Origin: Escherichia coli
GTDB taxonomy: Bacteria > Pseudomonadota > Gammaproteobacteria > Enterobacterales > Enterobacteriaceae
DNA length: 64,000 bases
Reading direction: 5' to 3' (one strand)
Assembly: GCF_003334315.1 (NCBI RefSeq)
Contig: NZ_QOWR01000013.1
Shown here: one piece after another, positions 1,543 to 8,082 of the stretch
Layout: every line of letters starts with the position of its first letter
Numbering within the stretch: position 1 is the stretch's first letter
Made by a program: the position numbers and the translations under genes
Notes under the pieces: generated by a model
Told to the model about the DNA's origin: nothing
The model's database searches: none
What the model saw: the letters and a program-made list of their open reading frames with translations, nothing else

Positions 1543-1565
1543 TTTTGTGTTTGGCATCAGTCTCA

Positions 1566-1598
1566 AACCGGCTCCTGACAGAGCCGGTTTTGGTTTTC
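1566..1598 (+). terminator. Rho-independent terminator downstream of barA
   Basis: 10-bp stem AAACCGGCTC / GAGCCGGTTT with 6-nt loop followed by TTTTGGTTTTC. Confidence 0.75.
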
Positions 1599-1602
1599 TG
1601 TC

Positions 1603-2943
1603 TTAACGCACCATGCACGGGCGCTTGTTATCGAACGTCCAGCCAGGAATCAGATACTGCATTCCCATCGCATCGTCACGCGCGCCAAGCCCGTGTTTCT
1701 GATACAGCTCATGGGCTTTCATCACTTGATCCATATCGATTTCTACACCCAGCCCCGGTTTTTCTGGCACCTGTACCAGCCCGCCTTTGATCTCAAACGG
1801 TTCTTTGGTCAGGCGCTGATTACCTTCCTGCCAGATCCAGTGCGTATCAATAGCAGTAATTTTACCCGGTGCAGCGGCGGCAACATGGGTAAACATCGCC
1901 AGGGAAATATCGAAGTGGTTGTTAGAGTGTGAACCCCAGGTCAGGCCAAATTCATGGCACATTTGCGCCACACGTACCGAACCTTGCATTGTCCAGAAAT
2001 GCGGATCCGCCAGCGGGATATCAACGGATTGCAGGGAGAGCGTATGGCCCATTTGCCGCCAGTCGGTGGCGATCATATTGGTTGCAGTCGGTAGACCTGT
2101 CGCGCGACGGAACTCTGCCATCACTTCACGCCCGGAGAAACCTTGCTCCGCACCACACGGATCTTCTGCATAAGCCAGCGAACCTTTCAGGTATTTACCG
2201 ATTTTAATCGCTTCGTTCAGCGACCAGGCACCGTTAGGATCGAGCGTAATACGCGCCTGCGGGAAGCGTTGCGCCAGTGCCACAATAGACTCGGCCTCTT
2301 CTTCCCCGGCCAGTACACCGCCCTTCAGTTTGAAATCGTTGAAGCCATATTTTTCATATGCCGCTTCCGCCAGGCGCACCACCGCATCCGGCGTCATCGC
2401 TTCTTCATGACGCAGGCGATACCAGTCGCATGAGTCATCCGGCTGGCTTTGATACGGCAGCGGCGTGGCTTTGCGATTACCGACGAAGAACAGATAACCG
2501 AGCATTTCGACTTCGCTACGCTGTTGACCATCGCCCAGCAGCGATGCCACGTTTACCCCCAGATGCTGCCCCAGCAGATCCAGCATTGCCGCTTCTATCC
2601 CGGTAACTACATGAATAGTGGTACGTAGGTCAAATGTCTGCAAACCGCGCCCACCAGCATCACGATCGGCAAAAGTATTACGCACCAGCGTCAGAACGTT
2701 TTTGTATTCACCCAGCGTTTTACCTACCACCAGCGGAATCGCATCTTCCAGCGTTTTACGGATTTTCTCGCCGCCGGGAATTTCCCCTACGCCAGTGTGA
2801 CCAGAATTATCTTTGATAATCACAATATTACGCGTAAAGAACGGTGCGTGTGCACCACTCAGATTCATCAGCATACTGTCATGACCCGCCACCGGGATAA
2901 CCTGCATTTCAGTAACAACAGGCGTCGTAAATTGAGAACTCAT
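1603..2943 (-). CDS. gudD: Glucarate dehydratase (enolase superfamily), 446 aa
   Basis: ORF 1603..2967; start moved to [22 protein letters not shown] (ATG 2941-2943, AAGGAC RBS); recognised from memory. Confidence 0.95.
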
Positions 2944-2963
2944 ATTTATGTCCTTTTTCAGAA

Positions 2964-4304
2964 TCAATGACGGCCGAAAACGGGACGTTTACGGTCAAAG
3001 GTCCAGCCGGGGATCAGGTACTGCATCGGACCTGCGTCGTTACGCGCACCGCCAGGCAGACGTTTATAGGCCTCATGTGCCTTTTGTACCTGTTCCCAGT
3101 CCAGTTCCACGCCCAGACCGGGCGCATCAGGAACGGCAATTTTTCCGTTTTTAATCTCCAGCGGATTTTGGGTCAGGCGACAATCGCCCTCCTGCCAAAT
3201 CCAGTGGGTATCGATAGCGGTAGGATTACCCGGTGCCGCCGCGCCCACATGGGTAAACATCGCCAGAGAGATATCGAAATGGTTATTAGAATGGCAGCCC
3301 CAGGTCAGCCCCCAGTCGTCGCAAAGCTGCGCCACACGGACTGCACCGGAAAGCGTCCAGAAGTGCGGATCGGCAAGTGGAATATCTACCGCATTGAGCA
3401 TCACCGCATGACCCATTTCGCGCCAGTTGGTGGCGATCATGTTAGTCGCGACGGGCAAGCCGGTCGCCCGTCGAAATTCCGCCATCACTTCACGTCCGGA
3501 GAAGCCCTGTTCTGCGCCGCATGGATCTTCGGCATAGGTAAGAACATCATTCAGCCCTTTGCATAAAGAAATGGCTTCATCAAGCAGCCATGCACCGTTG
3601 GGATCAACGGTAATCCGCGCATCCGGGAAGCGTTTCTTCAATGCACGAACAGTGTCGATTTCTTGCTCGCCAGGTAACACGCCGCCCTTAAGTTTGAAAT
3701 CTTTAAAGCCGTAGCGATCCTGTGAGGCTTCCGCCAGACGCACAACGGCTTCGCTGTTCATTGCTTTCTGATGCCGCAACTGATACCACTCATGGTTGCC
3801 CGGCGTATTTTCCACATAAGGAAGATCGGTTTTGGTCCGATCACCGATATAAAACAGATAACCGAGGACGGTAATAGCCTCGCGTTGCTTGCCTGGCCCT
3901 AACAGTTCGCAGACCGGAACATTCAGCGCCTTACCTAGCAGGTCAAGCAAAGCGGCTTCCAGCGCCGCCACGGCGTTAACGCGTAATTCAAAGGTCCAGG
4001 CACCTTTACCGAAGGTATCAAAATCGGCGGCCTGATTACCTTTATGCACCTGCTGGACCACTTTATTCAGTCGCGCAACTTCCTGGCCCAGAACCATCGG
4101 AATAGCATCGACAAGCGTCTGATAAATCACATCTCCGCCCGGCGCTTCACCAATGCCGGTATGCCCGGCGTTATCGGTGAGTACCACAATATTGCGGGTG
4201 AAATATGCGTTATGTGCCCCACCAATATTAAGCAACATGCTGTCATGCCCGGCCACCGGAATGACTTTCATATCAGTAATAACAGGACTGGATTGTGTCG
4301 CCAT
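2964..4304 (-). CDS. gudX: Glucarate dehydratase-related protein, paralog of GudD, 446 aa
   Basis: ORF 2964..4319; start at [21 protein letters not shown]; high similarity to the adjacent gudD product along the whole length. Confidence 0.93.
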
Positions 4305-4305
4305 C

Positions 4306-5658
4306 TTATTGCCCCGCAACAGGTTTCAACTCGATACGCTTGATATCGCCCACCAGCACCAGGTAGCTCAGTACCGCGATTAAGGCATGAACACCAACAT
4401 AAATCAGCGCCCCATTAAACGAGCCAGTCGTGCCAACGATATAACCAATTGCGATTGGCGTGACGATGCCAGAAATGTTACCGAACATGTTGAACAGGCC
4501 ACCGGAAAGACCGCTGATCTCTTTTGGCGCGGTATCTGCCATTACTGCCCAACCCAGCGCCCCGATGCCCTTACCGAAGAAGGCCAGCGCCATAAAGCCG
4601 ATGATCATCCACTCAACGTTGACGTAGTTGCAGAACACCATCACCATCGACAGCAACATGCCCATTACGATCGGTGTTTTACGCGCAATGTTCAGCGATC
4701 CCGTGCGGCGCATCAGCCAGTCGGAAATAATCCCACCCAGCACACCGCCGATAAAACCGCAAACCGCCGGAACGGAAGCCACAAAGCCCGCTTTCAGAAT
4801 CGACATCCCGCGTGCCTGCACCAGATAAACCGGGAACCAGGTAATAAAGAAGTAAGTCAGGGCGTTGATACAGTACTGACCGATATAAACGCCGATCATC
4901 ATCCGTGCCCCTAGCAGCTGTTTGATCTGCCCCCACTTCACGCTGAACGGCACTTTAACTTTGGTGTTTTGCTGATCCATATTGATCAGCGCACCACCCG
5001 CGGCGATGTACTCCAGCTCTTTCTTATTTACCCCCGGATGTTGATTTGGCTCGTGGATGACTTTCAACCAGATAAAGCTGATGACAATCCCCAGACCGCC
5101 CATAAAGAAGAAGACGTGTGACCAGCCCACTTCATGCGTCAGCCAGCCCATAATCGGCGCGAAGATCACCGTTGCGAAGTATTGAGCGGAGTTAAAAATC
5201 GACACCGCCGTTCCCCTTTCCTGCGCCGGAAACCAGGCCGCAACAATGCGACTGTTGCCGGGGAAAGATGGCGCTTCAGCAAGCCCGACCAGGAAGCGCA
5301 GCGTAAACAGGGCAACGATAATGCCGAATCCACTAAAGATATCGACGAAGCCTTGCAGCAAGGTAAACATCGACCAGATAAAGATCGACCAGAAGTAGAC
5401 GCGTTTTGAACCAAAACGGTCCAGCAACCAGCCACCAGGGATCTGCCCGATAACATAAGCCCATGAGAAAGCAGAGAACACATAGCCCATTCCCACGGGA
5501 TCAAGGCCGATATCTTTGGCCATTTCCGAACCGGCGATAGAGAGCGTAGCGCGGTCGCCGTAGTTGAAGGATGTGACGATAAACAACATCACCACTATCC
5601 AGTAACGAGCATTTGTGCGTTTTTCCACACTGCTCGCAGCCTGACTTAAAGAACTCAT
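4306..5658 (-). CDS. gudP: MFS glucarate/galactarate:H+ transporter, 450 aa
   Basis: 450-aa ORF rich in hydrophobic helices, MFS-like; head of the gudP-gudX-gudD arrangement. Confidence 0.92.
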
Positions 5659-7671: not shown

Positions 7672-7716
7672 AAAGCAACCTCAATAAGAAAAACTGCCGC
7701 GAAGGATAGCAGGAAT

Positions 7717-8082
7717 AAAAAAAGGGAGCACTGTATTCACAGCGCTCCCGGTTCGTTTCGCAGCATTCCAGCTACTTTTGTTGCTCCCTGCTCATCCTTG
7801 ACAACTTTTCCTCTGGCCTTGCGGCCAATCGTTCATCCTGAACTATTGCTTCCTGCTCACACCACCCCGATGTGATACTTCATCCTGAAGTGTCCCTGGC
7901 CTTCCTGACCCACCGAATCATCCTGACCGGTTCTCATTCTCCATCCTGGAGGTGTCCTTTAACGCGTCCTGCGTCATCCTCTTCGCTTCATCCAGAAGCC
8001 TTTCCCTGAAACACCATCCTGGTGTGTCCTGCAGAAGTGTCATCATCCTGATGTTCACTTCGTTGTCTGACTCCCTGTCGAC
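7717..8082 (-). ncRNA. csrB: CsrB small RNA (CsrA-sequestering decoy RNA)
   Basis: Minus-strand transcript begins GTCGACAGGGAGTCAGACAACGAAGTGAAC (plus strand 8053-8082); at least 9 CATCC motifs on the plus strand (AGGAUG / CAGGAUG on the RNA) plus many AGGA variants; ends with GC-rich hairpin 7724-7749 and U-run 7717-7723. Confidence 0.93.

Follow-up and report, generated by a model that had tools for sequence, protein, structure and literature searches.

Tandem gudX and gudD genes of Escherichia coli: an old paralogue pair with shared catalytic residues and divergent lid loops

The window, a stretch of 64,000 nt of Escherichia coli DNA analysed here as a whole, contains the adjacent genes gudD, for D-glucarate dehydratase (GlucD), and gudX, for the glucarate dehydratase-related protein (GlucDRP); these identities were confirmed, and the pair is already well known. 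Our best guess, to which we give a probability of roughly 0.85, is that GudD is the D-glucarate dehydratase of the pair and that GudX, an ancient paralogue with an altered lid, is a partner subunit still capable of catalysis. GudX and GudD are a documented case of a retained paralogue of an enolase-superfamily enzyme, named in 1998 and represented by solved structures since 2012-2013. The finding is therefore correct but ordinary, the identity of the pair being known already, and what is added here is modest detail: an ancient duplication, constraint on GudX like that on GudD, lid-loop divergence that spares the catalytic residues, and occasional collapse of the pair into a hybrid gene.

Organisation of the gudPXD operon

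The locus lies on the E. coli chromosome in a 4.4-kb region shared at 100% identity with a number of other E. coli strains (CP53, W5-6, HS30-1 and others), in whose chromosomes it is annotated as gudP, gudX and gudD. The first operon gene, gudP (4306..5658, minus strand), encodes an MFS glucarate/galactarate/glycerate transporter according to its open reading frame, a TIGR00893 score of 538 bits and the RefSeq annotation, and its stop codon ends 1 nt before the ATG of gudX. gudX (2964..4304, minus strand) runs from this ATG at 4304 to a TGA at 2966-2964, and gudD (1603..2943, minus strand) from an ATG at 2943 to a TAA at 1605-1603. The 20-nt spacer between them (2944..2963, minus strand) carries a Shine-Dalgarno sequence, AAGGA, at 2955..2951, 7 nt ahead of the gudD ATG. 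The two adjacent reading frames of 446 aa reported by the first-pass annotation were thus recovered at the same limits. Its description of gudX as the second copy is true of plus-strand coordinates only, since gudX precedes gudD in the order of transcription. There is no additional pathway gene within the operon.

Downstream of gudD, a GC-rich hairpin at 1565..1590 (13-38 nt after the stop codon, no strand assigned) lies between the convergent genes barA and gudD and may act as the gudD terminator. It was scored on the plus strand only, where a T-rich tail is present, and the number of terminator-like sites in the region was not above that in shuffled sequence. In a promoter scan, sigma-70-like sites were less numerous in the operon than in shuffled sequence, and the correct strand ahead of gudP had none. 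Of the plus-strand open reading frames, 2967-3566 runs antisense to gudX and 4387-4914 to gudP; both were taken to be mechanical by-products.

Identity of GudD and GudX

GudD matched the sequence of PDB entry 1EC7 from residues 1-446 to 1-446 with 1033.7 bits; the same sequence is present in 1EC8, 1EC9, 1ECQ and 4GYP. Over the aligned residues, GudX showed 100% identity with 4IL0 and with chain D of 4GYP, which are titled GlucDRP from E. coli K-12. A structure model of GudX superposed on 4IL0/4GYP with a TM-score of 0.97 and an rmsd of about 1 Å, and TM-scores on the solved GlucD and GlucDRP structures ranged from 0.93 to 0.98. Both proteins carry the enolase-superfamily domains, as the first-pass annotation had proposed, and the Pfam domains MR_MLE_C (E = 1.5e-50) and MR_MLE_N (E = 3.4e-8) were found directly on GudX, which is named 'enolase C-terminal domain-like protein' in RefSeq.

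The high similarity claimed for the two proteins along their whole length was borne out by BLASTP, which aligned them end to end with 282/448 identities (63%), 78% positives, 570 bits and E = 0. Three small gaps interrupt the alignment, each of them in the stretch from residue 4 to residue 111. Both shared strings quoted at that time, one of 11 and one of 25 residues, occur in GudX and in GudD. The 25-aa block corresponds to GudX residues 260-284 (3453..3527, minus strand) and GudD residues 261-285 (2089..2163, minus strand), in the latter case after the conserved AEDP motif with E260.

The two proteins were separated by TIGR03247, the glucarate dehydratase equivalog model, whose curated whole-protein cut-off is 828.7 bits. 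GudD scored 898.7 bits, and GudD orthologues of Cricetibacter, Lucifera and Acinetobacter 856-882 bits, whereas GudX reached 748.1 bits, other proteins of the GudX clade 708-741 bits, and a hybrid protein of Pantoea stewartii 764 bits. With a score below the cut-off, GudX does not qualify as a glucarate dehydratase equivalog. It has the residue states of the GlucDRP orthologous group (I27, G28, A33, H87, W103, E106, N110, N293 and C337) and the position of that group between gudP and gudD. The gene names given in the first-pass annotation are accordingly right, as judged from the RefSeq annotation, the identity to GlucDRP in the PDB and the TIGR03247 scores.

Catalytic residues are invariant in both clades

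K205, K207, N237 and H339 are listed as catalytic residues of 1ECQ in the Catalytic Site Atlas (CSA) (PMC4922564, Table 3), and the list for 1EC9 adds D313 and D366 (PMC3581254, Table 3). These six positions (GudD numbering) were invariant in 41 GudX and 75 GudD sequences, as were N27, H32, T103, Y150, F152, D235, E260, E266, N289, S340, N341, H368 and R422, i.e. 19/19 of the checked catalytic, metal and ligand positions. Both proteins therefore have the signature of the glucarate dehydratase subgroup: the KxK motif (K205, K207), the His-Asp dyad (H339, D313), N237 and D366. GudD residues D235, E260, E266 and N289 correspond to D234, E259, E265 and N288 of GudX, and the Mg2+-ligand set is thus present in both. 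We take D235, E260 and N289, at the ends of barrel strands 3, 4 and 5, to be the Mg2+ ligands of GlucD. The residues contacting glucarate in GlucD are presumably N27, H32, T103, Y150, N237, N341, H368 and R422; for H32, T103, Y150, H368 and R422 we assume the roles described in the structure papers and in UniProt.

With the complete set invariant, loss of catalytic residues was ruled out as the cause of the reportedly low activity of GudX. The first-pass annotation had suggested aligning the pair and looking for divergence among these residues; the sets turned out to be identical, and the pair diverges in the lid loops and at dispersed sites in the rest of the sequence.

Divergence is concentrated in the lid loops

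Seventeen clade-fixed columns separate GudX from GudD, and most of them fall in two loops of the capping domain, the 20s loop and the 100s loop. In the GudX 20s loop (residues 26-33 with N26, I27, G28, H31 and A33; 4206..4229, minus strand), which sits between strands in the structure model, the fixed changes from GudD to GudX are L28I, S29G and P34A (GudD numbering). The second region comprises the 100s loop and the start of the next helix (GudX residues 87-113; 3966..4046, minus strand), with the changes Q102W, D105E and H111N and an inserted GN (G89-N90). Here H87, the G89-N90 insertion, W103, E106, V109, N110 and A113 are fixed states of the GudX clade that GudD does not share. Segment 102-123 (GudD numbering) is 98-99% conserved inside each clade, and the two clade consensus sequences are 55% identical to each other in this segment. 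In the model, residues 98-102 of GudX, immediately before W103-T104, have pLDDT values below 50, which is consistent with a flexible lid. Clade-fixed differences outside the lid are D294N, S322A, S338C and G418P.

Two of the 20s-loop changes have been introduced into GlucD itself: PDB entries 3PWI and 3PWG are the P34A and S29G.P34A mutants, and both were crystallised with product bound. The same lid positions are altered in an upstream paralogue of Lucifera butyrica that appears to be independent, a hint that the paired arrangement can arise more than once.

The duplication is old

At the nucleotide level gudX and gudD are 64% identical, with 41% identity at third positions, and the longest exact match is 20 nt. 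dN was 0.30 and dS 2.25, i.e. saturated, and megablast with gudX produced no cross-match to gudD. In a 30-codon window over the 25-aa block only 9/29 identical residues share the same codon; the block was therefore kept by selection on the protein and not by gene conversion. Gene conversion was rejected for the long identical blocks in general on the grounds of these codons, the 20-nt longest match and the saturated dS.

Neighbour-joining trees, which cannot separate an ancient duplication from a later one with a burst of change in GudX, recovered a monophyletic GudX clade in 79% of bootstraps (87% for the core set) and placed it outside all GudD sequences, those of Firmicutes included. GudD was monophyletic in 16% of bootstraps, and midpoint and outgroup rooting left unsettled whether GudX branched off before all GudD. 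For the outgroup, a search of 50%-identity representatives, mostly fragments, supplied five full-length sequences and one GlucD-family sequence with 56% identity. GudX thus probably arose by tandem duplication, and the sequence comparisons indicate that this event is old, with no finer date.

GudX is maintained next to GudD

The GudX clade covers Enterobacterales, Orbales and Pasteurellaceae, and with few exceptions its loci are arranged as gudP-gudX-gudD. This order was conserved in 38 loci, in which the spacer between gudX and gudD has a median length of 20 nt and AAGGA is conserved; another 36 loci, in other phyla, have GudD only. GudX is almost always accompanied by an adjacent GudD, while GudD often stands alone.

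In 13 comparisons, dN/dS was 0.018-0.051 for gudX versus 0.011-0.050 for gudD. Across 38 matched genomes, mean pairwise identity was 83.3% for GudX and 86.2% for GudD, and 218 of 443 columns were invariant in GudX versus 245 in GudD. By these measures, purifying selection acts on GudX as strongly as on GudD. Among complete E. coli genomes, gudX was present and intact in 5409 of 5426 (99.7%). Duplication followed by divergence, as proposed initially, therefore holds for the pair, although the event is not a recent one in E. coli and the copy is not degenerating: it is ancient and constrained like GudD.

A single hybrid gene replaces gudX and gudD in eight genomes of E. coli and in Pantoea stewartii. 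Such hybrid genes are products of rare unequal recombination that collapses the tandem pair. GudX is dispensable for viability, because these genomes lack a separate gudX. Among the natural E. coli lineages without gudX is ST540; like the hybrid of Pantoea stewartii, these lineages could help to address the role of GudX.

A partner subunit as the likely role of GudX

gudX and gudD close the gudPXD operon, which serves glucarate utilisation. GudD takes the proton alpha to the carboxylate via K207 or the H339/D313 pair, giving an enediolate stabilised by Mg2+, and elimination of water then yields 5-keto-4-deoxy-glucarate. gudX encodes an ancient paralogue and, throughout Enterobacterales, Orbales and Pasteurellaceae, has stayed directly ahead of gudD and been inherited with it. 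Both proteins would be translated from a single mRNA on which their start sites lie close together, and they may assemble into a mixed tetramer. Most turnover of glucarate and idarate in this tetramer would fall to GudD. Its partner GudX would have remained catalytic but be slow on D-glucarate alone owing to its altered lid (G28, A33, W103, E106), and selection could have kept it either as a modulator or stabiliser of the complex or as an enzyme for a closely related diacid sugar. PDB entry 4GYP, titled 'heterotetrameric complex of GlucD and GlucDRP', holds both sequences; judging from this co-crystal a GudD-GudX heteromer is able to form, and it may be the physiological species. In the 1998 study by Hubbard et al., isolated GlucDRP reportedly had low activity, and proteins of its group are expected to be strongly impaired relative to GlucD in dehydration and epimerisation of D-glucarate and L-idarate. 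The literature searched had no mention of GlucDRP or glucarate dehydratase-related protein, and that mentioning gudX held no functional data.

A stricter version, which we regard as less likely than not, makes GudX an obligate, still-catalytic partner of GudD, whose lid gives the complex a property that GudD alone is without. This property would be a second substrate, an altered partitioning between epimerase and dehydratase activity, or regulation. Such an obligate role would explain why GudX has stayed beside gudD under GudD-like constraint since before the split of Enterobacterales, Pasteurellales and Orbales; GudD itself works without any GudX in many bacteria.

It is rather doubtful that GudX has become a dehydratase/epimerase for a different, related acid sugar imported by GudP, i.e. 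a case of neofunctionalisation with residual, promiscuous glucarate activity. The clade-fixed changes S29G, P34A, Q102W, D105E and H111N and the GN insertion do fall in the loops that set specificity in the superfamily, segment 102-123 is near-invariant inside the clades and different between them, and GudX stays below the TIGR03247 cut-off. The fully conserved catalytic machinery, which implies that the chemistry is still under selection, also fits. However, the presumed glucarate-contacting residues are all invariant in GudX, as would be expected for a ligand resembling glucarate; no extra pathway gene is present in the operon, and no alternative substrate was reported in the literature searched.

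That GudX is an essentially non-catalytic, structural or regulatory subunit of the GudD complex, i.e. a pseudoenzyme, seems improbable. The crystallised heterotetramer, the nearly constant company of GudD and the low intrinsic activity said to have been reported would all agree with it. Pseudoenzymes normally lose catalytic or metal residues, and the invariance of 19/19 positions in 41 orthologues from several orders would be difficult to account for unless selection acts on catalysis or at least on ligand binding.

Finally, the idea that gudX is redundant, a copy of gudD decaying into a pseudogene, prompted by its supposedly poor activity and by the rare lineages that lost it through recombination, is already refuted by dN/dS values of 0.02-0.05, equal to those of gudD, by the invariant columns (218/443) across 38 genera-level orthologues, by intact genes in 99.7% of complete E. 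coli genomes, and by saturated synonymous sites that make the duplication too old for a neutral copy to have survived.

Comparison with known systems

GlucDRP of E. coli K-12 (GudX, formerly YgcY, b2788; 4IL0, 4GYP chains C/D) is the same protein in the same genomic position with the same RefSeq name, and nothing of substance is different. Likewise, the gudD product is the same protein as E. coli GlucD (PDB 1EC7, 1EC8, 1EC9, 1ECQ). GudX resembles this GlucD in fold, length, 63% of its residues and the full set of catalytic, metal and ligand residues, but it differs in the 17 clade-fixed columns and in falling short of the TIGR03247 cut-off, and its activity is reportedly much lower.

Low-efficiency paralogues occur in other subgroups of the enolase superfamily as well, e.g. 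in the D-mannonate dehydratase subgroup, where the catalytic residues are conserved, the kinetics are poor and the physiological role is unclear. Those are usually unlinked genes and not tandem, co-transcribed partners crystallised as a heteromer. The protein of Actinobacillus succinogenes 130Z (PDB 3N6H, 3N6J, 3PFR) is a GudX-type orthologue from Pasteurellaceae, a bacterial family different from that of E. coli; Foldseek aligned it to GudX with 71-74% identity, and its score is 788 bits against GudX and 624 bits against GudD. Together with a Cricetibacter locus, this protein indicates that the GudX lineage reaches beyond Enterobacterales.

Organization of the gud operon and identity of its products

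Three tightly packed ORFs on the minus strand within 1603-5658 make up an operon with tight spacing. The gudP ORF (5658..4306) is followed by gudX (4304..2964, 446 aa), whose ATG lies 1 nt past the gudP stop codon, and, after a 20-nt spacer, by gudD (2943..1603, 446 aa); an AAGGA motif is located inside this spacer, 7 nt ahead of the gudD ATG. Across the loci compared, the gudX-gudD spacer had a median length of 20 nt with AAGGA conserved, and in most of them gudP and gudX were separated by -4 to +13 nt. ORF calls and alignment reproduced the coordinates, lengths and peptides with which the first-pass annotation had described gudD and gudX as tandem paralogues at 1603-4304. The two tandem genes thus stand, but both lie on the minus strand and therefore gudX, regarded there as the second copy, comes first in transcription order. 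Two plus-strand ORFs, one antisense to gudX (2967-3566, 199 aa) and one antisense to gudP (4387-4914, 175 aa), are taken to be mechanical by-products of coding-strand composition.

The 4.4-kb region matched several E. coli chromosomes at 100% identity and was found in 5426/5426 complete E. coli genomes, where the annotation reads gudP, gudX ('enolase C-terminal domain-like protein') and gudD ('glucarate dehydratase'). End-to-end alignment of GudX and GudD gave 282/448 identities (63%) and 78% positives (570 bits, E = 0), with three small gaps, all within residues 4-111. Against the glucarate dehydratase equivalog TIGR03247 (cut-off 828.7 bits), GudD scored 898.7 bits, above the cut-off, and GudX 748.1 bits, below it; Pfam assigned MR_MLE_N and MR_MLE_C to GudX. 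Over its full length GudD matched PDB 1EC7, 1EC8, 1EC9 and 1ECQ, and GudX matched 4IL0 and 4GYP, where the molecule is named 'Glucarate dehydratase-related protein'. The AlphaFold model of GudX (pLDDT 90) superimposed on 4GYP chain D with a TM-score of 0.97 and 100% identity. Foldseek returned the titles 'Crystal structure of GlucDRP from E. coli K-12 MG1655' for 4IL0 and 'Crystal structure of the heterotetrameric complex of GlucD and GlucDRP from E. coli K-12 MG1655' for 4GYP; a heterotetramer of the two proteins has accordingly been crystallised.

Two elements were seen at 1511-1590, between the convergent genes barA and gudD: a palindrome, gcctgatgcgctacgcttatcaggc, at about 1516-1540, which we take to be REP-like, and a 10-bp GC-rich hairpin at 1565-1590, which a terminator scan scored as terminator-like on the plus strand but not on the minus strand. 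Farther away, the minus strand carries the small RNA CsrB, a known E. coli gene, at 7714-8073 between yqcC and syd (Rfam RF00018, 380 bits, full length).

Conserved active site and altered lid

For E. coli GlucD, the product of gudD, the Catalytic Site Atlas gives K205, K207, N237 and H339 from structure 1ECQ (PMC4922564, Table 3) and K205, K207, D313, H339 and D366 from 1EC9 (PMC3581254, Table 3). All of these residues are identical in GudX, whose catalytic machinery is intact. Identity also extends to E266, to the metal ligands, which we take to be D235, E260 and N289, and to the presumed substrate contacts N27, H32, T103, Y150, F152, S340, N341, H368 and R422. Every catalytic, metal and substrate position checked was invariant in 41 GudX-clade and 75 GudD-clade sequences. 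The duplication and divergence proposed in the first-pass annotation are supported, with the caveat that the comparison of catalytic residues it had called for revealed zero divergence in that set.

Divergence fixed between the clades is centred on the lid. In the enolase superfamily, loops of the capping domain shut over the substrate and determine specificity. When columns at least 90% conserved inside each clade but different between the clades were collected, 17 discriminated GudX from GudD. Written from GudD to GudX in GudD numbering, they comprise L28I, S29G and P34A in the 20s loop; G78A; R88H, a G-N insertion after 88, Q102W, D105E, I110V, H111N and T114A in the 100s loop and adjoining helix; Q140K; and D294N, S322A, S338C and G418P in the barrel and C-terminal region, S338C adjoining the catalytic H339. 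Segment 102-123 was 98-99% conserved per clade, yet the clade consensus sequences were only 55% identical. In the model, GudX residues 98-102, right before W103-T104, had pLDDT below 50, as a mobile lid would be expected to have.

In two product-bound crystal structures of E. coli GlucD mutants, 3PWI (P34A) and 3PWG (S29G.P34A), the substituted 20s-loop residues are exactly those that the GudX clade has fixed. Positions 29 and 34 had evidently drawn the depositors' attention before; no paper describing these mutants was found in the literature searched. The product-bound crystals suggest that S29G and P34A alone do not abolish GlucD turnover.

Age, spread and retention of the duplicate

At the nucleotide level gudX and gudD were 64% identical, and 41% at third codon positions; the Nei-Gojobori estimates were dN 0.30 and dS 2.25, so that synonymous sites have reached saturation. 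Exact matches ran to 20 nt at most, and in a 30-codon window over a 25-residue identical block only 9/29 identical residues used the same codon. It follows that the two genes resemble each other through selection at the protein level, and not through gene conversion or a recent duplication.

Scanning a single genome for each species yielded 80 loci, whose ORFs were parsed. In 38/80 a GudX-type gene was directly followed by a GudD-type gene (Enterobacterales from Citrobacter to Budvicia, Orbales, and Pasteurellaceae represented by Cricetibacter), usually with gudP ahead, the exceptions being loci L007, L033, L038 and L044. A GudD-type gene alone was present at 36 loci (Pseudomonas, Bradyrhizobium, Variovorax, Bacillus, Paenibacillus, Acinetobacter and others). 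In Acerihabitans gudD lies upstream in divergent orientation, and in Paludibacterium the GudD-type gene is located ~5.5 kb upstream.

Neighbour-joining recovered GudX as a single clade (bootstrap 79%; 87% without three outliers) falling outside all GudD sequences, Firmicutes GudD included. E. coli GudD was 73-77% identical to Pseudomonas or Bacillus GlucD, compared with 63% to GudX, encoded next to it. Two histories would explain this, a very old duplication or rapid early change in GudX that later froze, and the trees fit both. Deep-branching GudX-like genes were seen in Halomonas eurihalina (L041:6001-7338), where neither gudP nor gudD lies within 6 kb, and in the Proteobacteria MAG ZJ4.bin29 (L038:6001-8704), there followed by a divergent GudD-like gene whose product scored 810 bits with TIGR03247, slightly below the cut-off. 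Both GudX-like proteins were 67-68% identical to GudX and contained W103, E106 and N110.

Constraint on both genes is strong: against 13 relatives, dN/dS was 0.018-0.051 for gudX and 0.011-0.050 for gudD. Among 38 genomes with both genes, mean pairwise identity was 83.3% for GudX and 86.2% for GudD, with 218/443 and 245/443 invariant columns, respectively. Of the 5426 complete E. coli genomes, 5409 contained gudX at a coverage of at least 80%. GudX is a constrained, functional gene.

Hybrid genes and a possible parallel pair

E. coli 23CRST022 (NZ_AP045781.1, L082:2755-4092) possesses one 445-aa hybrid gene abutting gudP, the first ~45 nt of which are gudX and the remainder gudD. Informative sites were in the gudX state before the junction (18/18) and in the gudD state after it (459/459), the crossover lying inside an 11-residue block common to both proteins. 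The identical junction occurred in 8/5426 E. coli genomes, the other seven being ST540 (three), Ecol_AZ147, 22F46, B18271 and CM148361; these strains are natural gudX-less lineages.

Likewise, Pantoea stewartii subsp. stewartii (NZ_VZPF01000011.1, L032:6001-7335) has one chimeric gene after gudP, at a locus ~1351 bp shorter than in other Pantoea. Its N-terminal ~260 residues were GudX-like (70-98% identical to Pantoea GudX per 40-residue window, mostly at least 80%), and the C-terminal ~180, from ~265 on, GudD-like: 95-100% up to ~360 and then 70-85%, still nearer GudD than GudX. The switch from one part to the other falls close to the 25-aa identical block. The protein, on record in several assemblies including DC283, scored 763.7 bits with TIGR03247, below the cut-off. 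Both hybrids arose when the tandem paralogues recombined unequally, with the crossovers falling at the two blocks where the pair is best conserved. Some GudX homologues in the database, each from a single assembly of Salmonella, E. coli or Phytobacter (P0001-P0005, P0007, P0010), are over-long at 583-690 aa; they probably stem from gene calls that read through from gudX into gudD or contain a frameshift, or else from additional fusions.

In Lucifera butyrica (Negativicutes), gudP is followed by a divergent GlucD-like gene (L059:4584-5951) and a canonical gudD (L059:6001-7323), with TIGR03247 scores of 772.7 bits (below the cut-off) and 856 bits. The divergent copy grouped with Firmicutes GlucD, not with the GudX clade, and was altered at lid positions 29, 102, 105, 110 and 111. 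This may represent parallel evolution of the same arrangement, a GudX-like partner having arisen independently.

Proposed role of GudX

We propose that GudX is translated together with GudD and that the two form a mixed tetramer, in which GudD would carry most dehydration of D-glucarate and L-idarate. GudX would be a still-catalytic subunit that, owing to its altered lid, is slow on glucarate by itself; such slowness was reportedly observed by Hubbard and colleagues. Hubbard et al. 1998 (Biochemistry 37:14369) is among the references of PMC3877842. GudX may be kept for altering the properties of the complex or for acting on a closely related diacid.

Neofunctionalisation towards a distinct substrate is plausible, but it is weakened in that every presumed glucarate contact is invariant in GudX. 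The invariant catalytic residues likewise weaken the case for GudX as a regulatory subunit devoid of catalysis, and a decaying copy is refuted. No account of the physiological role of GudX was found in the literature searched. The pair is E. coli gudX/gudD itself, already known and ordinary, having been named in 1998 and characterised structurally in 2000-2013.
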